DNA of 64,000 nucleotides, taken from assembly GCA_963725515.1 (NCBI GenBank), contig CAVRZB010000008.1, forward strand, positions 137,791-201,790. The letters are read 5' to 3'. The DNA comes from an uncultured Solirubrobacteraceae bacterium. GTDB taxonomy: Bacteria; Actinomycetota; Thermoleophilia; Solirubrobacterales; Solirubrobacteraceae. Positions 35,808 to 50,997 of this stretch are shown here, piece by piece. Below the pieces are notes generated by a model. That model ran no database searches and was not told the DNA's origin. It saw only the letters and a program-made list of their open reading frames with translations. Within the stretch, counting starts at the first letter, position 1, and each line of letters starts with the position of its first letter. The position numbers and the translations under genes are program-made.

Positions 35808-36704
35808 TTAGTTGTGCTTCTTCTTGTACAGCGCGAGCACGATGTCGTACATCTCGCGCGAGGTCTCGCCCCCCGGGCAGCATGTGGGCCCGCCGGGATC
35901 GCTGATGCCGATCTCGATGTGCGGGCCCGAGGAGATCCCGACCTGCCCGCAGCCGACCTCGGCGATCGGCTGGCCCGCCGTGACGTGCGCTCCGACGCGC
36001 ACGAGCGCCGGCGCGGCATGGCCGTAATAGATGTAGCGGCCCGCGTACTTACCGCTTGAGACCTTGAGGATGGGCGCATAGGGCCCGAAACCGCTGATGC
36101 CCTCCTGGACGATCGTGCCCGAGGTGACGGCCACCTCGGTGACCCTGGAACCGCAGGCGTTGCCGACGGTGCCGATGTCGACACCCTGGTCAAGCGTCCA
36201 GTCGTTGGGCGCGAGGACGCGCGAGATCGGCTGCAGCGGGAAGACCCAGCTCGAGGAGCCGGTCGAGCCGCGGCCCACCGTGCCGCCCACGCCACCCAGG
36301 TTCGCTCCGCCCGATCCGGCCACCGCGGCGTGCGTGGCCACCGTCTCGACCGCCCGCCGGAGCGCCGCCGCCGTTCTGACGCCGACGATGCCGCTGGCCT
36401 GCAGCCGGTGGCCCCGCTGGAATGCCCGCACGGTGCTCGCCGTCTTGGGCCCGAAGGTCCCGCTGGCATGGATCCGGTAGCCGGTCTCGGTGAGCCAGGT
36501 CTGGAGCGTCTTCACGTCCTGGCCGACGGAACCGACCCGCAGCGTGCGTGAGAAGTTGGAGTAGGAGATGGCCGAGCTGTCGAAACCACTCGGCGCCTGA
36601 GGCGCCTTGACGCCCGCGCCGCCCGACCCCGCCGACGCGCTGGCCGGCAGCGCGATGAGCAGCGCGCTCGCCAGCACGGGGACCAGACGTCTGATGGAGA
36701 ACAT
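35808..36704 (-). CDS. Secreted peptidoglycan-binding-domain + M23/LytM-like protein
   Basis: Signal peptide, PG-binding [14 protein letters not shown]...FGPKT...FQ, YYGH...[17 protein letters not shown]...GPHIE. Confidence 0.8.
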
Positions 36705-36838
36705 CTGCGGTTTGACATCGGCCGCTCCCCGGCGAGCACCGCGGGTAGAAGCCGAAATGCACGTCGTTATGGCGCGAAAGCTGCTGTAAACGGGCAAGCG
36801 GAATGGCTCCGTGGGTCAGATCTTGCAAATCTGTGCCT

Positions 36839-36965
36839 GACGCCTACGGAGTTAGCTGACGGGCTCGCGCTCTGATCGAGCGCTTCCCGCGGACCACCGC
36901 GGGACTCGCCCCAAACGAATTGGGTTCCCCGTCCCCTGGGATGGCTCCCCAGGGGTTCGGCGCAC
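36839..36965 (-). ncRNA. Cyclic di-AMP (ydaO/yuaA) riboswitch
   Basis: Minus strand reads GCCGAACCCC...GGGGAACCCAA..TTTGGGGCGAGTCC...GAGCCCGTCAGCTAACTCCGTAGGCG, matching the ydaO consensus. Lies upstream of a cell-wall enzyme, as is typical in Actinobacteria. Confidence 0.9.
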
Positions 36966-37160
36966 GCCACCGTACCAGAGCGCGTGGTCGGGACTCATCC
37001 GCAAAAGTCCGCAATTTGCGCGAGAACTGGCGGCAATCCTCGTTGCGCGGGCAGGGTTCGACGGCCGTCGGCGGAGTGGCGGACGTTATCAACGGGTTTC
37101 TGGTGCGTCAGGGCCCGTGATCGATCTTCATGCCTATATGGGAAAAACCGATCACGCGGA

Positions 37161-40810: not shown

Positions 40811-40934
40811 GCGGCGCGGGAGGCTATCGCGTTAGGACGCCGCGGCGCATGCGGGCGCCCGTTGCCCGTGTTTCAGGTGCGTTTTGGCCCGCAAATGGGT
40901 AGGGGAGCGAAGTGCGGCGATACCCGAGCAACCG

Positions 40935-41996
40935 ATGAGCGCAGTGGGGCCGGAGCCGGTCAGCTTCGAGCTCGACCGGTTCGAGCTGGTCGGCGATGAT
41001 CGGCTCGAGATCACGGGACGCTGGTACGGCGTGCGCGGCCGGCGCTTCGTGCGCCCCAGCCTGACCGTCGCCGGCGGCGCCGGGCGCAGCCGCGCCCTGG
41101 CCCTGCTCGACGACAAACCCTGGGCGGCCGACGACGGCGCTCCGTGGATCGCCGCCTTCCCGTGGAACTCGCAGGACGCCGACCTGGCCGACGCCGAGCT
41201 GGCGGTCGCCCCCGACATCGCCATCGCCCTCCCCGGGCCGACCGCAGGTGGGCCCCCACCCGAGCGCCGCACCGCAGTCGGATCAAGGGCCGGCCGCAAG
41301 CGCCTGCCCCGCGTGGGCCCCGACCACGACACCGTGAAGGCGCGCTCTGACCGCGACGCCGCCCGCCGGGCTCAGCTGGAGGCCTTCACCGAGCGTGACG
41401 CGGCGATCTCGCAGCGCGATGGCGCGCGCCGGCGAGCGCGCGCGGCCGAGGGCGAACGGGACGACGCGCTGGCCCAGAGCGCCGCCGCCGAGGGCGAACG
41501 GGACGACGCGCTGGCCCAGAGCGCCGCCGCCGAGCTCGAGCGGGCCAAGGCGGGGGCCGAGCGCGAGCAGGCGCTCGTGGCGCGCGACGCCGCGACCATG
41601 GAGCTCGAGGCGGCCAACGCCGAGCGCCGTCAGCTCGAGCGAGAGCTCGACCAGGCGGTCGCCGCGAAGCGAGGCCTCGCGCAAGAGCTCAACCAGGCCC
41701 ACGCCGAGCTCGAGGCCACGCGCGTCGAACGCGACGGCCTCGGCACCGAGCTCGAGCGACTGACCACCGAGCTCGCGCGACCGAGCGCCGAGGGCGAACC
41801 ACCGGACGGGACTCGCGATGCCCTCCAGCCGTTGAGCCTGCCCGCGCCGCCGCCGCTCGCCCCCGACCCGGTGCCGATCACGCCGCCCGAGCGCGCTCTG
41901 ACGCAGGGCCGCCGCAGCGCCGGCTGGATCAGCCGGTCGGTCGCGCTGCTGGCGCTCTTGGCCATCGTGCTGGCGGTGCTCATAATCCTTCACTGA
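40935..41996 (+). CDS. Uncharacterised coiled-coil protein with N-terminal beta domain and C-terminal TM anchor
   Basis: FELDRFE...GRWYGVRGRRFVRP, long Ala/Glu/Arg heptad region, terminal hydrophobic helix. Confidence 0.65.
   Translation: MSAVGPEPVSFELDRFELVGDDRLEITGRWYGVRGRRFVRPSLTVAGGAGRSRALALLDDKPWAADDGAPWIAAFPWNSQDADLADAELAVAPDIAIALPGPTAGGPPPERRTAVGSRAGRKRLPRVGPDHDTVKARSDRDAARRAQLEAFTERDAAISQRDGARRRARAAEGERDDALAQSAAAEGERDDALAQSAAAELERAKAGAEREQALVARDAATMELEAANAERRQLERELDQAVAAKRGLAQELNQAHAELEATRVERDGLGTELERLTTELARPSAEGEPPDGTRDALQPLSLPAPPPLAPDPVPITPPERALTQGRRSAGWISRSVALLALLAIVLAVLIILH
41445..41528 (+). repeat. Exact 42-bp intragenic tandem duplication (AEGERDDALAQSAA x2)
   Basis: gccgagggcgaacgggacgacgcgctggcccagagcgccgcc at 41445 and 41487. 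Confidence 0.9.
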
Positions 41997-41998
41997 AC

Positions 41999-42427
41999 AT
42001 GGCCCGGCAGATGTCAGGCGACGAGTTGCGCGCATTCCTGATGTTCGGCACGCGCACGGGCAAGATCGGGACCGTGATGAAGAGCGGCGCCCCGCACGTG
42101 ATGCCGATCTGGTTCGTGCTCGATGGCGAGGACATCGTCTTCACGACCGGCCGTGACACGGTCAAGGGCCGCAACCTCCGCCGCGACCCACGTGTCTCGA
42201 TGGTGGTCGACGATCAACAGCCGCCGTACTCATTCGTGCACGTCCGCGGCGAGGCCCGGATCAGCGAGGACCCGGACGAGCTGTTGAGGTTCGCAATCGA
42301 GATCGGTCGCCGCTACATGGGCGCTGAGCTCGCCGAGGAGTTCGGACGCCGCAACGCTGTGCCCGGTGAGCTGCTGGTCCGGGTCGCCCCGATCCGCGTG
42401 ATCGCCGAGGCCGCCGTCTCGGAGTGA
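41999..42427 (+). CDS. PPOX-class F420-dependent oxidoreductase
   Basis: GAPHVMPIWF, KGRNLRRDPRVS. Confidence 0.88.
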   Translation: MARQMSGDELRAFLMFGTRTGKIGTVMKSGAPHVMPIWFVLDGEDIVFTTGRDTVKGRNLRRDPRVSMVVDDQQPPYSFVHVRGEARISEDPDELLRFAIEIGRRYMGAELAEEFGRRNAVPGELLVRVAPIRVIAEAAVSE

Positions 42428-42463: not shown

Positions 42464-43420
42464 TCAGCGGGCCGCAGTTGCCGGACCGACCTCGGGATCC
42501 TCGTCGACGGCCCGGCGCAGGGCTTCGTCGAAGGGCGTCGCCGGCACGTCGAAGAGCTCCGACCCCGACGGGTCGGTGACCACCGTCGGCACGGCCAGGC
42601 CCTCGACGAGCGGCCGGGCCACCCCGGCGTCGACCGGCGTGACGAGCCCGATCCAGTGCGAGGAGAGCCACGGGGTGATGAACGGCACGGGGATGCGCGG
42701 CCGGCGGCGAAGCCCGAGCACGAGCGCCATGCGGTCGAGCATCTCCCCGTAGGACAGCACGTCCGGGCCGCCGATCTGGATCTCACGGCCGGCCGAGGCC
42801 TCGATCGAGGGGGCCTGGACCAGATAGGCGAGCGCGTCGTCGATGGCAATCGGCTGGGTGTCGTTCTTCAGCCACGCCGGGGCGATCATGGCCGGCAGGC
42901 GCTGGACGAGGTAGCGCAGCGTGCGGTAGGACTCGCTCTTGGCGCCCACCACCATGCTCGCGCGGAAGTAGGTCAGCGGCGGGCCCGATTCCCGCAGCGC
43001 GAGCGCGGTCTCGTGACGACTGCGAAGGTGCTCGGATTGGGGGCGGTCCCCGAGACCTCCCAGGTACACAACGCGGGCGACCCCCTCGGCGCTGGCCATG
43101 GCGGCGAACGCCGTGGCCGCACGACGCTCGCGCGCGGCAAAATCGGCGCCGCCCCCGCGACCCATCGAGTGGATCAGGTAGTAGGCCACGTCGACGCCGT
43201 CCCCGGCACCGCGCAGCGTCTCGGGCTTCAGGACATCGCCCTCGTGGAGCTCGAAGCCGGCGGCGGCCAGCTCGCGGGCGCTCCGCCCGCGACCGTCGCG
43301 AACCATGGCGCGCACGTTCCAGCCGGCATCGGCCAGTTCGTGCGTGAGCTTGCCACCCACGAAGCCGGTGGCGCCGGTGACCAGCGCTCGCCCTCGCGCC
43401 GGGTTCTCTGGGGATGTCAC
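42464..43420 (-). CDS. Atypical SDR / NAD(P)H-binding protein
   Basis: LVTGATGFVG, AYYLIHSM, VYLGGL, SEHLRSR, QPIAIDD. GGAG SD before GTG 43420. Confidence 0.85.
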   Translation of the reverse strand: MTSPENPARGRALVTGATGFVGGKLTHELADAGWNVRAMVRDGRGRSARELAAAGFELHEGDVLKPETLRGAGDGVDVAYYLIHSMGRGGGADFAARERRAATAFAAMASAEGVARVVYLGGLGDRPQSEHLRSRHETALALRESGPPLTYFRASMVVGAKSESYRTLRYLVQRLPAMIAPAWLKNDTQPIAIDDALAYLVQAPSIEASAGREIQIGGPDVLSYGEMLDRMALVLGLRRRPRIPVPFITPWLSSHWIGLVTPVDAGVARPLVEGLAVPTVVTDPSGSELFDVPATPFDEALRRAVDEDPEVGPATAAR

Positions 43421-43509
43421 GGGGTCTCCACGCTGCTCGGCACCGCTCTGCACCCTTCCCCCTCTCCCGAGGGAGAAACCCGGATCGGCGCGCGCGTAAT
43501 GATCACACG

Positions 43510-45255
43510 TCAGCCGACACCGACCGGTGCCAGCAGCAGGGCGGTCACCGCACCGGCCTCGGAGGCAAGGCCGAGCAGCGGCGCGCCGCCACCCGAACGG
43601 CCCGCGGCCGGCTTGGCGGCCGACGTCCCCGCGCGCGTACGGCTGCGCGCGGAGGCCACGATGTGGGTCGAGCTCCGGCCCGCGTGGGCCGCCGCCGTCG
43701 CAGACCCCCCGGCAGATCCGCCGGCCGAGGCGGGGACCGCGGCCAGGGGAAGCACGCGGCCGGCGAGGGCCAGGGCGGCCTCGGCGGTCACCCAGACGGG
43801 CGTCTGGTCAGTCGAGGGCGAGTAGCGGACGTGACCGTCGGAGGCGGTCATCGAGCGCAGGAAGGAGAGCGGCGAGCGGGCCCCTCGGCGGAGTCCCGCC
43901 GGGTTGACTCCGGCGGCCAGCAGACCCTGCACGGCCCAGGCGGTCGACTGCGCGTTGGACTCGCCGCCGGCCTGGGATGGAAAGCCACCGTCCGCGTTCT
44001 GCTGCGTACGCAGGAAGCGAACCGCGCGGGGCGTGGTGCGGCCGGGACCGAGCGCCTCGAGCGCGCCGCCGGTGTCGTCTACGTCGCTCTGCCCGCCTGC
44101 CGTGGCAAAGGAGAAGCCGCCGTCAGAGTTCTGCTGGCGCCGCAGCCAGCCGATCGTATTCGAGGGCGGCGCGACGCCGGCGGCGCGCAGGGCCAGCACG
44201 GCGAAGGCCGTGAGGTTGACCTGCCTGGCCACCGAGCCGTCCGGACGCAGATGACGCATGAGCGCCCCGACCAGATCATGCCCGGCGAAGTTGCGCGCCG
44301 AGCCGCCGGCCGCCCCGACGACCAGGATCGTGCGCTCGAGCGACCCCACGTCGCCGATTGAGCCGACACCGCCGGCCACGTAGTCGAGCACGCTGGCCCC
44401 GCCGTGGCGCACGTCGGCCGGGCTCTGGCCGAAGGCGGCCAGGCCGAGCGCGCTCCAGCCGGCATAGAGCTGTACCGACGGGTCGCCGGGCGCGGCCCCG
44501 AAGCCGCCGTCGGCATTCTGGGCGCCGCGCAGGTACGTGCTCGGCGAGGCCGCGCGGGCGGGAGTGGCGGCGGCCAGGGCGAGCGCCTGCGGGGCGAGTA
44601 GGACGACGAGCAGCGCGGGCACCGCGCCGGCCGGCTTCCAGGTGACCTGCAGACGCGCCCCGAAGCGCCGCACCGAGCGCGCCAGAGCCGGTCCGAAGGC
44701 GAGCGCAAAGGCCAGGCAGCCGCCCGCGTGGACGAGATCGAAGCCGATCCCCTTGCCGAGGTAGACGCCGAGCTGGGCGCTCGAATGATCGCTGTAGGTG
44801 ACCCAGTCACCCACGTCCTGGAAGGCGGCGAAGCCGAACCCCACCACGGCGCAGATAACGGCGAGCGGCCAGCGTGATACCAGCAGCTGCTCGTCCCTGG
44901 CGCGGCGCCCCACCATGCCCAGCCCGGCGCCGAGCAGGCCGACGACGCCCCAGGCCGCCATCTGCCAGGGCGTCCAGGGACCCTGTCCGAAGAAGAAGTT
45001 CGAGGTCAGCCCGGCCAGCGCGCCGACCACGAAGCCCGGGGCGGCGCCAAGCGCAAAGCCGGAGATCAGGACGATGTCGGTCGTCGGCTTGACGTTCGGC
45101 AGGGCGGCGAAGGCGATCCGGCCCAGCGCGGCGAAGGCGGCCAGCGTGCCCACCATCGCGATGATCCGGGCGTCCGGCCGCCTGCGCTCGTACCAGGCGA
45201 ACCCGGCGCCGAGCGCCAGCGCCAGCACCGCGAAGGCCCCGACCTGCCAGCTCAC
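43510..45255 (-). CDS. ECF transporter S component (CbrT-like) fused to a prenyltransferase/squalene-oxidase-repeat barrel
   Basis: LGRIAFAALPNVKPTTDIVLISG...GQGPWTPWQMAAWG, then repeats YLRGAQNADGGF, WLRRQQNSDGGF, FLRTQQNADGGF. GTGA coupling to the ATPase. Confidence 0.8.
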   Translation of the reverse strand: MSWQVGAFAVLALALGAGFAWYERRRPDARIIAMVGTLAAFAALGRIAFAALPNVKPTTDIVLISGFALGAAPGFVVGALAGLTSNFFFGQGPWTPWQMAAWGVVGLLGAGLGMVGRRARDEQLLVSRWPLAVICAVVGFGFAAFQDVGDWVTYSDHSSAQLGVYLGKGIGFDLVHAGGCLAFALAFGPALARSVRRFGARLQVTWKPAGAVPALLVVLLAPQALALAAATPARAASPSTYLRGAQNADGGFGAAPGDPSVQLYAGWSALGLAAFGQSPADVRHGGASVLDYVAGGVGSIGDVGSLERTILVVGAAGGSARNFAGHDLVGALMRHLRPDGSVARQVNLTAFAVLALRAAGVAPPSNTIGWLRRQQNSDGGFSFATAGGQSDVDDTGGALEALGPGRTTPRAVRFLRTQQNADGGFPSQAGGESNAQSTAWAVQGLLAAGVNPAGLRRGARSPLSFLRSMTASDGHVRYSPSTDQTPVWVTAEAALALAGRVLPLAAVPASAGGSAGGSATAAAHAGRSSTHIVASARSRTRAGTSAAKPAAGRSGGGAPLLGLASEAGAVTALLLAPVGVG

Positions 45256-46862
45256 GCGGTCACCTCGATCCGCCGCCGCGCGCCGATCAGCTCGGCCCCA
45301 TCCTCGGGCGAGAGCGCTCCGCCGGCGCCGCCGAGGATCCGTGCCGTCTCGGTGGCGAAGTAGGTGCCACCGGCGAGCACCTCCGGGGTCGGCCCGTCGG
45401 CGATCGGCGCCCCGTCGGCCAGCAGCACGACGCGCTCGGCGAACGCAGCGGCGAACTCGGGATCGTGCGTGGCCACGAGCACCGCCGCATCCAGGGATCT
45501 CAGGGTCGCCGCGAGCTCGCCCTTCAGCGCCCGGTCCATGCCGCGCGTCGGCTCGTCCAGGCACACGACGGCCGCCGGGTCGCCGGGCGAGTCGAGCACG
45601 ATGGCCAGCGCCAGGCGCTGGCGCTCTCCGCCCGAGAGCTCGCGCGGGTGCCGGCCAGCGAACGACGGGTCCCCCAGGCCCATGCCCGCGAGCGCCGCCG
45701 CTCCGGCCTCCTCGGCGACGGTCTCGTGGATCAGATAGTCCGTCGGGTTCTGCAGCAGCAGGGCAACGCGGCCCGAGCTGTGCACGCGCCCGCGAGTGGG
45801 CCGCATGAGCCCGGCGCCATGGCGCAGCAGCGTCGATTTTCCCGCCCCGTTTCGCCCCATCAGGACCACACGCTCACCGGGGGCGAGCTCGAGCGACACG
45901 GAGCGCAAGATGGCAGGGCCGTCGGCCAGCTCGTGCCACACGCCGTCGAATCGCAACGCCGGCTCTGGGCTGCCCTTGCGCCGCCGGCGGCTCAGACGTG
46001 TACGCGGCGCCGTCGGCGCAACGGCGGCCTCGGGCAGCAACCCGTGCTGGCGCAGGGCCGCTCGGGCCCGGCGCACCCCGACCCGCGGCGGCCGCACACC
46101 GACGGCGCCGAGCAGGCGGGCGCCGGGGGTCTGAAGCTCGGGCGCGGCGAGCGCCGCCCATTCCAGGAACTCGCCCGGGGCCGCGTCGCAGCCCACATGA
46201 CCGTCGACCATGGCGATCACCCGATCGGCGAAGCCCAGGCAGCGTTCGAGGCGGTGCTCAGCCAGCACGATCGCGGTGTCGGAGTCCTCGTTGAGCCGGT
46301 GCAGGAGTGAGATCAGCTCATCGCCGGCGACTGGGTCGAGCTGCGAGGTGGGCTCGTCGAGCACGACCAGCGCCGGCCGACCGGCGAGCGCGGCGCCGAG
46401 CGCCACGCGCTGGAGCTCGCCGCCGGACAGCTCCGCGGTCGAGCGCTCGAGCAGGTGAGCGATCCCCAGCGCTAGCGCCGCCTCCTCCACCCCGCGCGCC
46501 ACGGCGGCCGTGCCCAGGCCGCGGTTCTCGAGCGGGAAGGCCAGCTCGGCCCGCACCGTCCCCATGATCACCTGGGTCTCAGGGTCCTGGAAGAGCGAGC
46601 CGACGACCGCCGAGAGGTCGCTCGGACCGTGGACGCGCGCGTCCATCTCCCCCACGACGACCTGCCCGGAGATCTCGCCCCCGTGAAAGTGCGGCACGAG
46701 GCCGCCCGCGGCGCGCAGCAAGGTCGACTTGCCCGATCCCGACGCTCCGGCGAGCACCACGAGTTCACCGGCCGAGATGTCCACGGACACGTCGCGCAGG
46801 GCGGGCCACGCGGCTCCTGGGTATGTGTAGGTCAGCCGCTGCACGCTGAGCACACTGGTCAT
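45252..46862 (-). CDS. Tandem-fused ECF ATPase (EcfAA')
   Basis: GASGSGKST/LSGGELQR/LDEPT and GRNGAGKST/LSGGERQR/LDEPT; FQDPETQ. Confidence 0.92.
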   Translation of the reverse strand: MTSVLSVQRLTYTYPGAAWPALRDVSVDISAGELVVLAGASGSGKSTLLRAAGGLVPHFHGGEISGQVVVGEMDARVHGPSDLSAVVGSLFQDPETQVIMGTVRAELAFPLENRGLGTAAVARGVEEAALALGIAHLLERSTAELSGGELQRVALGAALAGRPALVVLDEPTSQLDPVAGDELISLLHRLNEDSDTAIVLAEHRLERCLGFADRVIAMVDGHVGCDAAPGEFLEWAALAAPELQTPGARLLGAVGVRPPRVGVRRARAALRQHGLLPEAAVAPTAPRTRLSRRRRKGSPEPALRFDGVWHELADGPAILRSVSLELAPGERVVLMGRNGAGKSTLLRHGAGLMRPTRGRVHSSGRVALLLQNPTDYLIHETVAEEAGAAALAGMGLGDPSFAGRHPRELSGGERQRLALAIVLDSPGDPAAVVCLDEPTRGMDRALKGELAATLRSLDAAVLVATHDPEFAAAFAERVVLLADGAPIADGPTPEVLAGGTYFATETARILGGAGGALSPEDGAELIGARRRIEVTA

Positions 46863-47719
46863 CCGATCCCCCGGCGATCCGTGAAGGGCAGCAGCGCGAC
46901 GACCGCCAGCGCCACGGCCAGCAACAGCTCGCTGAGACCGAGCGGCACGTGCAGCGACGGGTAGGCGTGAAACGGCGCCAGGCCGCCCAGACGCCCCACG
47001 AGCGCGAGGCCTACGAGGGCCACGGCGGAGCCGCCGAAGGTCAGGTCGTGGCGCGAGTACGGGCGCTGGGCCCGCGGCGGCTTGGCCGAACCGCCAAATC
47101 CCCGCACCTCGAGCGCTGAAGCCACGTCCAGAGCGCGGTCGAGCGCCCCCGAGCTCGCGGCGCGTATCAGGGTCACACGCGACGGCGGCGGCCCGGGCCG
47201 ACAGCGCTGGGCGTCGGCCAGACGGCGGGAGTCGCGCATCAGGACCGGCACCATTCGGGTGGCCAGGGTCGCCGTCAGCGCCGAGCGGAAGGACACGCGC
47301 CGAAAGAGGCGCAGCACCTCGTCGGGATCGACGGCGGCTGTGTAGAGCGCGCCGCAGAGGATGAAGGCGACCGCCCGCAGACCGAGCATCGCGCCGTACG
47401 CGGTCGCTTCGAGGGTGATGTCGGTGTGGTCGAGGATCGGCAGCTGGCCGAGCCGCACGATCACGTGCAACCCGTCGCGGCTCACCAGGGCGTTGACGAG
47501 CATGATCAGGAGGGCCAGCGGGACGGCGAAACGTGCCGCGCGACGGAGCTCCGCACCAACGCCGGCCGCAGCTCCGGCACCGAGTGTGGCCAGCACGACG
47601 GCGCCCAGCTCGAGCGGGTGGTCGAGCAACAGTGCCGCGACCGCAAGCGCGAGACAGTACAGGCACCCGGCGCCCGCCCGGGCGGCGTGGAGCGGGCTGC
47701 GGCGGCGCCGGTAGCTCAC
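46859..47719 (-). CDS. ecfT: ECF transmembrane component T
   Basis: Several TMs, ALDVASALEVRGF (XRX motif). GTGA coupling. Confidence 0.85.
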   Translation of the reverse strand: MSYRRRRSPLHAARAGAGCLYCLALAVAALLLDHPLELGAVVLATLGAGAAAGVGAELRRAARFAVPLALLIMLVNALVSRDGLHVIVRLGQLPILDHTDITLEATAYGAMLGLRAVAFILCGALYTAAVDPDEVLRLFRRVSFRSALTATLATRMVPVLMRDSRRLADAQRCRPGPPPSRVTLIRAASSGALDRALDVASALEVRGFGGSAKPPRAQRPYSRHDLTFGGSAVALVGLALVGRLGGLAPFHAYPSLHVPLGLSELLLAVALAVVALLPFTDRRGIG

Positions 47720-48660
47720 GGTGTGCTCACCGGCAGCGGCCATACACGGTTCCCCTGTACGGCCAGCGCGAAGCGGTTGTGCAGCTGAGCCTGGTTGAAG
47801 GCCTTTGACGCGGCCAGCACCCCTGTGCTGTCGGTGCCGGTGACGAACCAGGTGGGCTCGGAGAGCTTGTCGCGGGTGGCGGCGATCAGTCCCGCCCCGG
47901 GGCCAAGCGTGGTCACGGCGCGGGCGCTCGGATCGAGCAGCGCGAGCGTGCTGCCGGTGCGTCCGCCGAAGCGTGCGTAGACGCCACTGGCCGAGGGGCC
48001 GTGGGCGATCAGACTGGCCGCCACCTCCGCGATGACCTCGCGCCACGGCGCCACCACGACACCGATCGTGTCCGACCCCGAGCCCGTTCCGATCAGCTGG
48101 CTGGCCAGCGGGACGTGAATGGCGCGAAGGGTGGCCGTGACGCGGTCGCAGGCCGCCTTGACGTCCGAGCCGCATTCGATCGTTACCGGCAGTCGCTTGC
48201 CGCCAACGCCGTGCACGAACGGCTCGGGAAACGATCCGACAACCGCTGGAATCGTGTCAGTCGCGGTCCAGTCGTGGAGGTCCCACCAGATCCGGTCGCC
48301 GCGGTGCACGGCCGTCGTGGCCGCGCCGGCCGCGGCCTCGACGCCGTTGACGTAGTAGAACCAGTCCAGGTGCGGCCCGCCTCCGGCGAGGCCACCGATC
48401 GACTCGACGAAGCCCCCGCCGTACCTGGTCTGGACCGGCAGGGAGCGCTCGAGCATCCGCATCACCGTCTCCGATCCCGGCACGTGGGATCGCGTGACCG
48501 ACCTCACGCTACGCGCGCCGAAGTCGCGCGTCACGTTGAGGTTGACCTCGCTGGTGCCGGCACCCGGTCCGAGCCCGCAGCCCCCAGCGCCGGCGGCCGC
48601 GAGGGCGACCGCCAGCGTTGCGAGGGCGATGCGCGCGGCTGGGGCCCGGCCGGCCATCAC
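47716..48660 (-). CDS. DUF4430 (transcobalamin-C-terminal-like) lipoprotein
   Basis: Lipobox AGGC, TRYGGGFVESIGG...DWFYYVNG......VHRGDRIWWD. Confidence 0.75.
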   Translation of the reverse strand: MMAGRAPAARIALATLAVALAAAGAGGCGLGPGAGTSEVNLNVTRDFGARSVRSVTRSHVPGSETVMRMLERSLPVQTRYGGGFVESIGGLAGGGPHLDWFYYVNGVEAAAGAATTAVHRGDRIWWDLHDWTATDTIPAVVGSFPEPFVHGVGGKRLPVTIECGSDVKAACDRVTATLRAIHVPLASQLIGTGSGSDTIGVVVAPWREVIAEVAASLIAHGPSASGVYARFGGRTGSTLALLDPSARAVTTLGPGAGLIAATRDKLSEPTWFVTGTDSTGVLAASKAFNQAQLHNRFALAVQGNRVWPLPVSTP

Positions 48661-49340
48661 TACGAGACGCGCACGGTCACCGGGACCGACCGGACATACC
48701 CGGTCTCGGTGGCGGCGTACTTCAGCCGCCCGGCGTGATGCGCGGTCAGGGTCACCGTCCCGTGCTTATTGGTGATCGCCCCGTCCACATGTGCGCCTGC
48801 GAGCGGCGTGGGGACCCCCGCCGGGCGCTTCGGTGTGGGCTTGTAATAGATGGCCTTGAGCTCAAACGGTCGCCCGACGCCGGCGCGCGCCGGTCCGCTG
48901 AGCACGATCGGGAACTGGCTGCCGTCGGTCACGGCGAACAGCAGTTGCTCACCCTTGCGGAGCTTGAGGCCGCAGACGCCCGCCTGGGCGGTGCGGTTGT
49001 CCACGAAGACCGTCCAATAGAAATTCCCGGCCGGCTTCACGCCGAAGATCGATGCCACGAAGATCCCGGGCGTCCCTGAGAAGATCTTGCCCTGCCAACG
49101 GCCGCGCGTGGCCGCATCCAACGCACCGGCGGCGGTGGAGGCCGGGCAGCTGCCCTTGGCCGCACCCCCCTTGGTGATCGACCCGGCATGGGTGTGCACA
49201 AGGGTCGGCGCAAGCAGCGTGCTTGTCCGGCCTTCGATACGCACGGACACGGCGGTCCCGGCCGCCGGCGCGGCCGACGCAGGAGCGAGCACGAGCGCAG
49301 TGCTCGCCCCGACTATGGCAACAGAACGTCTGACTGTCAT
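48660..49340 (-). CDS. Secreted DUF4430-like protein with C-terminal Ig-like segment
   Basis: Signal peptide, IFVASIFG...YWTVFVDN...AGVCGLKLRKGEQLLF. Confidence 0.6.
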   Translation of the reverse strand: MTVRRSVAIVGASTALVLAPASAAPAAGTAVSVRIEGRTSTLLAPTLVHTHAGSITKGGAAKGSCPASTAAGALDAATRGRWQGKIFSGTPGIFVASIFGVKPAGNFYWTVFVDNRTAQAGVCGLKLRKGEQLLFAVTDGSQFPIVLSGPARAGVGRPFELKAIYYKPTPKRPAGVPTPLAGAHVDGAITNKHGTVTLTAHHAGRLKYAATETGYVRSVPVTVRVS

Positions 49341-49377
49341 GAGAGCCACCCCTTTCCACGAGGGCGTATGGGCTTGG

Positions 49378-49528
49378 CGGTCGGAGGCTGGTCTCCTGGC
49401 TTACGGGCCTACCGGCCGCGCCTTCCCGGGCACTCGGCGTGCCCAGTGGCTCATTGCGGACGGCGTCCCCGATCACAGTGGCGGGTCCGCGCCGGATCCT
49501 CCCCGGCTTCCCATCTCCACCGACCTTG
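49378..49528 (-). ncRNA. Cobalamin riboswitch
   Basis: Minus strand reads GGGAAGCCGGGGAGGATCCGGCGCGGACCCGCCACTGTG...GCCACTGGG...GGGAAGG...AAGCCAGGAGACCAGCC (B12 box). TACGAT -10 at 49543-49538. Confidence 0.93.
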
Positions 49529-49581
49529 AACTGGAGGATCGTACCGCTTCACGTCAAGTCACACGTAGAATCTGTCCCCCC

Positions 49582-50139
49582 GTGACCGTCAATCTCACCC
49601 GCATCTACACGCGCCTCGGCGACGGCGGCGAGACCCACCTTGGCGACATGAGCCGGGTGCCCAAGACCCACCCGCGGATCGAGGCCTACGGCACGGTCGA
49701 CGAGCTCAATGCCCAGATCGGCGTCGCGCTCACCGTCGAGGGGCTGCCGCCGGCGTACGCCGAGTGGCTGGCGCGTATCCAGAACGACCTCTTCGACGTG
49801 GGCGCCGACATATCCGCGCCCCACGACCCCGATCGCGAGCGGCTCCGCGTGCTGCCCGAGCAGACCACGTGGCTCGAGGAGCGCTGTGACGAGGTCAACG
49901 ACACGCTCGAGCCGCTGCACTCGTTCGTGCTCCCAGGCGGCAGCGCCGCGGCCGCCCACCTCCATGTCTGCCGGACCGTATGCCGCCGGGCGGAGCGGCT
50001 GGTCATCGCCTGCGGTGAACAGGTCAACGCCGAGGTCGTGCGCTATCTGAACCGGCTGTCGGACCTGCTCTTCATCCTCAGCCGCGGCGCCAACCGCGGT
50101 CAGGAGCCGCTCTGGGAGCCCGGCCGGTACCGGCCGTGA
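49582..50139 (+). CDS. Cob(I)alamin adenosyltransferase, PduO type
   Basis: IYTRLGDGGET, RIEAYGTVDELN, IQNDLFDVGA, FVLPGG, RRAER, YLNRLSDLLF. Confidence 0.95.
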   Translation: MTVNLTRIYTRLGDGGETHLGDMSRVPKTHPRIEAYGTVDELNAQIGVALTVEGLPPAYAEWLARIQNDLFDVGADISAPHDPDRERLRVLPEQTTWLEERCDEVNDTLEPLHSFVLPGGSAAAAHLHVCRTVCRRAERLVIACGEQVNAEVVRYLNRLSDLLFILSRGANRGQEPLWEPGRYRP

Positions 50140-50997
50140 GAGCCCGTTGAGAGCAGGGTGATACCGGCCGCGAGCCCGATCGCGAGCGTCCCGATCACGG
50201 CCGCGCCAATGATGAACGCCGTATGGTCGCGGGCGTACGACGAGGACCTCGTGCGGGCGGGCGAGGGCGACCAGCCCGACCACGACCACGCCGCAGGTGA
50301 CGATCGCCACCGACGGCCACAACACGGATGCCAGCGACGGCGAGGCGATGGCTTCGCTGTCGCTCTCCTCGGCGCGCGGCCACCGGCGATCGTAGGCGAA
50401 CACGGCCGCCGCCCCCAGGAGCGTCCAGACCACCGCGAGGAGGAAGCCGCCGAGCACATCGCTCGGGTAGTGCCAGCCGAGCTCCAGGAACGAGTAGCTG
50501 ACCGCGATGGCGAAGGCGGCGCCGACGGCGGCCACCCGAGGGCGGTAGCGCGCCGGGGCCGCGAGCACCGCGCACAGGGCCAGCGCCATGGCCGCGGTGG
50601 CGTGGCCGCTGGGCCAGGACGCCGAGGAGACATGCGCGTTACCGGCGACCTGGGTGGTCAGGCGGGGCTCCGCGAGCAGGGGCTTGAGCAGTTGGGTGGT
50701 CAGATTGGCGCCGAGCAGGATGCCGAAGATCGCCACCGCCCGCTCGATGCGCCCGCGACACACGGCGACAATCACCGGTATCGCGGCCAGCACGACATAC
50801 GGCTTCGGGTTGCACAGCCCCGCGATCTGGTTGGTGATCGAGTCGATGCGCGGCCGGCTGATGCCGGAGAAGCCGCCGAGGATCTGGCCGTCGGCGCGCT
50901 CCAGGAAGCCGATATGGAACGCTGCGTACCAGGTCAGGAACAGCAGCAGGAGACCGGCAAGCGCACCGAGGAGTGCGGACGGGGCACGTCTGGGCAT
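50100..50997 (-). pseudogene. PAP2 family phosphatase with an apparent +1 frameshift near 50241
   Basis: LLKPLL..PR, SWPSGHATAA, LGWHYPSDVLGG. The final TM (YARDHTAFIIGAAVIGTLAIGL) is in another frame. Confidence 0.65.

Follow-up and report, generated by a model that had tools for sequence, protein, structure and literature searches.

Secreted transcobalamin-like proteins occur in bacteria, where they belong to the SLBB superfamily defined by Burroughs, Balaji, Iyer and Aravind in 2007 (PMC1796856). In that study, many of the bacterial SLBB domains are joined to an alpha/alpha toroid, a further SLBB paralogue is often encoded alongside, and the operons hold CbiO-like ATPases and CbiQ-like membrane proteins in hosts without B12 synthesis. 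The authors predict B12 scavenging for these operons, propose that animals gained transcobalamin from such bacteria, and place toroid-SLBB fusions in Firmicutes and in animal transcobalamin. A related arrangement, the lsa1836-1840 operon of Latilactobacillus sakei, encodes an S component, a fused A-A' ATPase, a T subunit and two separate secreted proteins that resemble the beta and the alpha domain of transcobalamin (Verplaetse et al., bioRxiv 10.1101/864751). Among energy-coupling factor (ECF) transporters, ECF-CbrT of Lactobacillus delbrueckii (6FNP; Santos et al. 2018, PMC5997447) is a characterised importer of B12 and cobinamide. In addition, intrinsic factor cleaved into the fragments IF30 and IF20 retains tight cobalamin binding in the form IF30-Cbl-IF20 (PMC6257451), a precedent for two halves binding B12 as separate polypeptides. 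Here we analysed 64,000 nucleotides (nt) from an uncultured Solirubrobacteraceae bacterium (assembly GCA_963725515.1, contig CAVRZB010000008.1, positions 137,791 to 201,790; hereafter the window), in which a cobalamin riboswitch leads five genes for two SLBB/DUF4430 proteins (g1 and g2), an ECF energising module (g3 and g4) and an S component fused to an alpha/alpha toroid (g5). The window is high-GC and close homologues of its proteins came from Solirubrobacteraceae and Solirubrobacterales metagenome-assembled genomes. Taken as a whole, the explanation that we favour, with some reserve, is that of a B12 uptake system whose surface SLBB proteins and toroid capture corrinoid and hand it over to the S component. 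The features on which this proposal is built are the following:

49369-49563, minus strand: cobalamin riboswitch aptamer, RF00174 (95.4 bits, E 8.6e-25, model positions 1-189 of 189)
49340 to 48660, minus strand: g1, secreted SLBB/DUF4430 protein of 226 residues (signal peptide, Pfam DUF4430)
48657 to 47716, minus strand: g2, probable lipoprotein of 313 residues (Pfam DUF4430, 50.2 bits; lipobox-like AGGC)
47743 to 46859, minus strand: g3, EcfT (CbiQ family) transmembrane coupling subunit (PF02361, 54.3 bits; TIGR02454, 31 bits)
46862 to 45252, minus strand: g4, fused EcfA-EcfA' ATPase of 536 residues (ABC_tran, 149.5 bits in two stretches)
45255 to 43510, minus strand: g5, S component-toroid fusion of 581 residues (CbrT homology, AlphaFold2 model, Pfam)
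44551-45255, minus strand: g5 residues 1-235, CbrT-like S component and seventh helix (phmmer against 6FNP_A, AlphaFold2)
43720-44550, minus strand: g5 residues 236-512, alpha/alpha toroid with QNxDGGF repeats (AlphaFold2, Foldseek, profile, Pfam)
43510-43719, minus strand: g5 residues 513-581, low-complexity stalk and C-terminal hydrophobic anchor (AlphaFold2)
49573-50139, plus strand: PduO-type ATP:cob(I)alamin adenosyltransferase, divergent neighbour (Pfam Cob_adeno_trans, 210 bits)

The riboswitch, for which the RF00174 gathering score is 31.5 bits, was full-length with an intact B12 box, and a genome-wide search revealed it as the sole cobalamin riboswitch of the 4.25 Mb genome. The Shine-Dalgarno sequence GGAAAGGGG and the ATG of g1 stood about 20 nt 3′ of its end. 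The minimum free energy fold of the leader together with the start gave a z of -1.3 and showed no clear helix sequestering the Shine-Dalgarno sequence. Behind the riboswitch lay five overlapping minus-strand genes, joined by an ATGA overlap at g3/g4 and a GTGA overlap at g4/g5, while the g1/g2 and g2/g3 junctions abutted or overlapped by 0-28 nt. A first-pass annotation of the window had described a riboswitch-led, tightly coupled five-gene operon. The aptamer score, the gene models and the Pfam and NCBIfam matches bore out the operon, and the term 'tightly coupled' was correct because the junctions overlap or abut. That annotation had also recognised the riboswitch itself but had set its right-hand coordinate too short, the element running 35 nt further.

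The PF02361 (CbiQ) score of g3 compared with a cut-off of 25 bits, and g4 scored about 249 bits against both TIGR04520 (ECF_ATPase_1) and TIGR04521 (ECF_ATPase_2), under their equivalog cut-offs of 315 and 330. In g5, residues 32-200 aligned with residues 12-174 of the 182 residues of L. delbrueckii CbrT, 6FNP_A (phmmer E 5.5e-11, 45.6 bits, 163 residues), and the Pfam ECF S-component models reached 20.3 and 17.3 bits, both under their cut-offs. The host genome, which is 92.6% complete, gave no match to CbiC for corrin ring synthesis and none to CobS for nucleotide loop assembly. It did encode B12-dependent MetH, methylmalonyl-CoA mutase and several other proteins with B12-binding domains, indicating that the host needs imported B12. 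Since this need coincides with the only B12 riboswitch of the genome, the operon is very probably the corrinoid importer of its host. The adjacent PduO gene is associated with the operon, though it does not lie behind the riboswitch. The riboswitch, the CbrT homology, the ECF module and the B12 status of the host thus support the earlier proposal of a riboswitch-controlled, dedicated importer, and that the locus is such a corrinoid importer of the ECF-CbrT type can be held with high confidence.

The S component-toroid fusion was found in at least 595 species-representative genomes of Thermoleophilia type. The locus comparisons drew on the best 80 of these, nearly all from Solirubrobacterales, Thermoleophilia or unclassified Actinomycetota and including Conexibacter arvalis DSM 23288. 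All related loci with sufficient upstream flank kept the order g2, EcfT, EcfAA' and S component-toroid fusion, a g1-like gene preceded g2 in 71 of 71 loci, and a cobalamin riboswitch headed the operon in all eight diverse loci tested. An orthologue of the PduO gene was the operon's neighbour in about 37 of these 80 loci. Toroid and DUF4430 genes occurred together wherever the flank sufficed. In the 90%-identity protein-cluster collection the fused protein had 6,765 matches among 8,000 scored candidates, and g2 had 5,110 matches. In C. arvalis DSM 23288 (locus L030, 2833-4347) the first gene after the riboswitch encodes 504 residues, SLBB-like at both ends, in place of the 226-residue g1; this strain is cultured and may suit experiments.

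We then considered the two DUF4430 proteins. The g2 product comprised an N-terminal DUF4430/SLBB domain of about 100 residues as well as an alpha/beta domain at the C-terminal end, and its Cys27 and Gly28 were invariant across 45 homologues, the cysteine sitting in the lipobox-like AGGC. Foldseek matched the N-terminal domain with rat, human and bovine transcobalamin (8ixt, 5no0, 5np4, 2v3n, 2bb6 and 2bb5; probability 1.0, E 1.5e-3 to 3e-2, 19-20% identity over about 103 columns), including the isolated human beta domain in its apo and cyanocobalamin-bound forms (5np4), and with the bacterial DUF4430 structure 3u7z. The C-terminal domain gave weak matches alone, to BcsB and to glucuronidase accessory domains. 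Sequence searches of the PDB with g2, as a single sequence or as a profile, returned no match, so that the likeness to transcobalamin was seen by fold search alone. As modelled, the N-terminal DUF4430 domain of g2 has the transcobalamin beta-domain fold. The literature agrees that DUF4430/SLBB has this fold (PMC1796856, PMC4350170), and the likeness between DUF4430 and the beta domain claimed by the first-pass annotation thus held. The g1 product carried a signal peptide followed by a divergent SLBB/DUF4430 domain (residues ~72-137), and its C-terminal domain was beta-rich. It scored 21.9 bits against DUF4430, for which the Pfam cut-off is 23.8, and 24.4 bits in a six-frame genome search. The g1 and g2 families aligned over the g2 SLBB core in hhalign (probability 92%, E 5e-7), and an iterated search started from g1 recovered all 74 g2 genes; on these sequence comparisons, g1 is a paralogue of g2 and an SLBB protein. 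The six-frame search placed the only DUF4430 locus of the genome at the g1/g2 operon.

The g5 model (AlphaFold2, alignment of 52 homologues) had a mean predicted local distance difference test score (pLDDT) of 79. Its membrane domain contained six helices followed by a seventh hydrophobic helix at residues ~212-226, which was highly variable among the 52 homologues while the flanking domains were strongly conserved. Residues 236-512 formed a single, all-helical toroid of 277 residues with pLDDT mostly >90, as anticipated by the barrel that had been placed at about residues 245-520. It was followed by a disordered Ala/Gly/Ser/Arg linker (residues 516-558, pLDDT <50) and a C-terminal hydrophobic helix at 560-575. 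A C-terminal hydrophobic segment was present in 54 of 79 orthologues of the fusion, and in the model this last helix should tether the far end of the toroid. S components span the membrane six times and keep both termini in the cytoplasm. Because helix 7 follows such a six-helix unit, the toroid is predicted to face the outside, and g1 and g2 are likewise predicted to be extracytoplasmic.

Pfam models matching the toroid comprised Prenyltrans, SQHop_cyclase_N/C and TED_complement, at 23-31 bits. The toroid family was large, with 3,898 clusters at 50% identity. Among the 114 nearest toroid relatives, Pfam assigned an ECF S domain to about 15 and showed one protein fused to DUF4430 and one fused to PAP2; many others looked like stand-alone toroids with one N-terminal hydrophobic segment and often a C-terminal one too. 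Some fused proteins carry the Joint Genome Institute (JGI) labels 'prenyltransferase beta subunit' or 'Prenyltransferase and squalene oxidase repeat'; for S component-toroid fusions, JGI labels of this type are probably misleading.

A separate observation concerned the helix 7 region (g5 residues ~200-236, window ~44550-44655). An Arg-rich stretch preceded the helix and usually an Ala-x-Ala-Ala followed it, just ahead of the toroid. The helix varied in sequence like the core of a signal peptide, resembling an internal cleavable one, and stand-alone toroid homologues had one N-terminal hydrophobic segment in the corresponding position. Ala-x-Ala was found ahead of the toroid in 75 of 79 orthologues, a count that was not significant because the proteins are so Ala-rich that chance explains it. 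Helix 7 may be an internal, cleaved signal peptide, in which case the S component and the toroid would be made 1:1 and then become separate proteins.

From these components we infer B12 binding by the SLBB proteins and the toroid, docking between them, and hand-off to the S component. In the mechanism that we propose, enough adenosylcobalamin would shut the operon off through the leader riboswitch. When the operon is expressed, the toroid would be held right over the S component by helix 7 and the C-terminal anchor. The SLBB domains would pick up free corrinoid where it is very dilute outside the cell, an ability known from the isolated transcobalamin beta domain and from the IF20 fragment. 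A loaded SLBB protein would then dock on the toroid, so that the ligand is sandwiched beside the S component and passes to CbrT, which would topple and, with ATP hydrolysis, release the ligand into the cell. Adenosylcobalamin would finally be made by the adjacent PduO-type adenosyltransferase. That the toroid and the SLBB proteins form a clamp like that of transcobalamin is plausible because of their strict co-occurrence, their shared predicted extracytoplasmic site, the architecture of transcobalamin and the natural fusions elsewhere. We place the clamp a little short of an even chance. A bolder proposal, which we hold tentatively and with considerable doubt, is that ECF import, usually regarded as needing no extracellular binding protein, here depends on ligand-induced assembly. 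Soluble and lipid-anchored SLBB proteins would dock on a tethered toroid and the transient sandwich would load CbrT, giving a hybrid of binding-protein-dependent ATP-binding cassette (ABC) and ECF importers that would stand near the bacterial forerunner of animal transcobalamin.

Several results weigh against such a clamp. The 50 Foldseek matches listed for the toroid in the PDB comprised drimenyl diphosphate synthase, squalene-hopene cyclases and the beta subunits of farnesyl- and geranylgeranyltransferases, with no transcobalamin, intrinsic factor or haptocorrin among them. Similarly, a profile of 24 diverse toroid members matched squalene-hopene cyclase (2.6e-35) and drimenyl diphosphate synthase (5e-35), followed by prenyltransferases and the thioester domains of complement and alpha-2-macroglobulin, and no B12 carrier was found among the 60 profile matches listed. 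The Pfam model Cobalamin_bind (PF01122) did not match the toroid of the window even at E up to 10 and touched three of the 24 relatives at E 0.082 or worse. By sequence and by fold, the toroid is therefore nearest to class II terpene cyclases and prenyltransferase beta subunits, and its identification as a transcobalamin alpha domain was rejected, as the listed matches of the fold search and of the family profile, and PF01122, showed no specific kinship. The two share the general alpha/alpha-toroid fold, but membership of one family is not demonstrable; of the transcobalamin-like barrel of the first-pass annotation, the fold stood and the specific likeness to the alpha domain did not. The toroid also contains SDVDDT at g5 residues 390-395, aligned with the catalytic DVDDT 374-378 of squalene-hopene cyclase. 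In addition, the g2 model had a mean pLDDT of 67, a moderate confidence, the five-part operon of L. sakei, the one look-alike studied by experiment, was assigned to heme by its authors (bioRxiv 10.1101/864751), and L. delbrueckii CbrT, with B12 binding at about 9 nM, achieves transport with no accessory protein (PMC5997447), so that helper proteins are not intrinsically required. The lack of a specific alpha-domain likeness would suit corrinoid import without a clamp, the SLBB proteins alone binding the ligand outside the cell with high affinity while the toroid serves as a docking platform, as a spacer or envelope-spanning scaffold, or as a lid, without ligand contact. The isolated beta domain of transcobalamin does bind cyanocobalamin by itself (PDB 5np4), and the single DUF4430 fusion among the 114 nearest toroid relatives is in line with this arrangement. 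We nevertheless regard it as unlikely, since toroid and SLBB occur together in every related locus, Firmicutes and animal transcobalamin provide examples of a toroid fused to SLBB (PMC1796856), and conserved polar residues stand at the N-termini of successive inner helices of the toroid, a position that forms the cavity mouth in cyclases.

The kinship with cyclases raises the question of whether the toroid is instead a working enzyme of class II terpene-cyclase or prenyltransferase type, acting outside the cell on a lipid or a corrinoid and merely co-expressed with the importer. Besides the profile matches and the aligned acid motif, this would be consistent with short cyclase-family chains of ~350-370 residues among the profile matches, namely MstE (6sbf), a prenylcyclase (6ij1) and 8pak, some of which we take to be single-domain class II cyclases, and with the PAP2 phosphatase gene upstream and the one relative with a fused PAP2 domain. 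A retained cyclase active site had been named at the first pass as an argument against the clamp, and the outcome was divided: the aligned DVDDT is present in this toroid, but the full DxDD was found in just 32 of 79 orthologous fusions from other species. GxDD, NxDV, DxDS, TxDG and ExDS occurred elsewhere among these orthologues, and the central Asp was kept in every acid motif that the search pattern recognised. The D-x-D-x-T pattern is moreover a generic repeat feature of such toroids and recurs in non-catalytic repeats of squalene-hopene cyclase. DVDDT is thus weakened as evidence of catalysis because the motif decays, the pattern recurs in repeats and the single toroid is predicted to be extracellular. 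Its predicted position outside the membrane is also far from prenyl diphosphate pools, and its coupling to the B12 riboswitch and the SLBB genes is strict. Given this decay in orthologues that share the same operon and the extracytoplasmic site predicted for the toroid, we down-weighted the enzyme reading to very improbable. A further alternative is that the main substrate is another tetrapyrrole such as heme, to which Verplaetse et al. tied an ECF operon with transcobalamin alpha- and beta-like proteins (bioRxiv 10.1101/864751). Here, however, a cobalamin riboswitch precedes the operon, as in eight of eight relatives tested, the neighbouring gene encodes a cobalamin adenosyltransferase, the host needs B12 yet lacks matches to CbiC and CobS, and hemin does not compete with B12 in ECF-CbrT (PMC5997447). 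We rejected heme as the substrate in view of the riboswitch, the adjoining PduO gene and the host's dependence on B12, and consider import of another tetrapyrrole as the main function extremely improbable.

Several neighbouring features were recorded on either side of the operon. Between g5 and the genes of the PntAB transhydrogenase stand three genes:

40884-41996, plus strand: coiled-coil membrane protein (no Pfam match)
41999-42427, plus strand: PNPOx-like protein
42464-43453, minus strand: NmrA-like reductase

These genes were rejected as members of the operon; they look like a local insertion, the PntA gene directly following g5 in about 40 relatives. No MotA/ExbB-type motor genes adjoined the operon. 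Upstream of the riboswitch, an open reading frame (ORF) for a PAP2-family phosphatase (49549-50997, minus strand; PF01569, 57 bits) had no stop until 49549, so that as read it crossed the entire PduO gene in antisense and overlapped the riboswitch by 15 nt. The ORF of relatives encodes ~285-310 residues and stops ahead of the adenosyltransferase gene, and the extra length seen here probably reflects a stop that was lost, a frameshift in the assembly or a shadow frame in high-GC DNA. The succession of PAP2, PduO, riboswitch and operon was syntenic in about 20 of the 80 related loci, and one S component-toroid homologue (P0305, 816 residues) carried a PAP2 domain fused at its C-terminus. Elsewhere in the window, a c-di-AMP (ydaO-type) riboswitch (36826-36972, minus strand; 67.8 bits) was found ahead of an ORF for a secreted protein (35808-36797, minus strand), whose sequence, inspected by eye, showed a repeat of peptidoglycan-binding type and, C-terminally, the M23/LytM-like motif GPHIEIG. 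This riboswitch was syntenic in one related locus (L013, 13203-13330). A wall hydrolase under riboswitch control is a known actinobacterial arrangement.

Soil communities share B12 as a key nutrient; Thermoleophilia and Solirubrobacterales are abundant in soil and mostly unculturable. The operon is widespread and is probably the only B12 entry route of these bacteria. If the clamp were true, ECF transporters could use extracellular capture proteins, the system would offer a bacterial model for the assembly of transcobalamin and intrinsic factor around B12, and the way in which auxotrophs compete for picomolar B12 would be explained. The idea as such dates back some 20 years, and the value of the finding lies in encouraging biochemical work more than in discovery.

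Compared with the known systems, the locus resembles the operons of Burroughs et al. in its secreted SLBB protein, paralogous second SLBB protein, toroid, CbiO/CbiQ genes and host without B12 synthesis. The toroid, fused N- or C-terminally to SLBB in those operons, is here fused to the S component while the SLBB domains are encoded separately, and neither a riboswitch nor an S component is mentioned in the sections of that account used here. Those sections also present the transcobalamin-like SLBB clade as chiefly a Gram-positive innovation, whereas the present locus belongs to Thermoleophilia (Actinomycetota) (PMC1796856). Lsa1836-1840 of L. sakei is built from parts of the same five kinds and amounts to a 'split transcobalamin' carried by an ECF transporter (bioRxiv 10.1101/864751). 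Its alpha-like protein is separate and secreted, and HHpred grouped it with the transcobalamin alpha domain, while the toroid here is part of the S-component polypeptide; the present operon further differs in having two beta-like proteins and a cobalamin riboswitch. ECF-CbrT of L. delbrueckii shares whole-length S-component homology, an ECF energising module, a PduO neighbour and a B12-auxotrophic host (PMC5997447). That CbrT is, however, a bare protein of ~182 residues served by a shared general ECF module, whereas the module here is dedicated and operon-encoded with fused A-A', the S component adds a seventh helix, a 277-residue external toroid and an anchor, and two SLBB proteins are co-encoded.

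Animal transcobalamin, intrinsic factor and haptocorrin (2bb5, 2bb6, 8ixt, 5np4) use the same two folds, a toroid and a beta-grasp SLBB domain, in one soluble chain with a PF01122 alpha domain. Here they are found on separate polypeptides, and the toroid, which had no PF01122 match, keeps QNxDGGF repeats of cyclase/prenyltransferase type, unlike the animal B12 carriers. Class II cyclases and prenyltransferase beta subunits (1gsz, 7xq4 and farnesyltransferase beta 1ft1) gave the best matches to the toroid in sequence and fold and have repeat motifs in common with it, and the DVDDT motif can be aligned. Cyclases of squalene-hopene type are nonetheless beta-gamma didomain proteins, cytoplasmic or membrane-monotopic, with the active site between the domains, whereas this is a single toroid predicted to be extracytoplasmic. 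Unlike cyclases, it is also tethered to a vitamin transporter, its DxDD is not conserved among orthologues, and no prenyl-substrate context was found around it. The idea of a split transcobalamin on an ECF transporter is thus already known from Burroughs et al. and lsa1836-1840, and our literature searches found no paper on a toroid-S-component fusion. What distinguishes this locus within the kind predicted in 2007 is the fusion of the toroid to the S component, together with the two SLBB paralogues and the control by a riboswitch.

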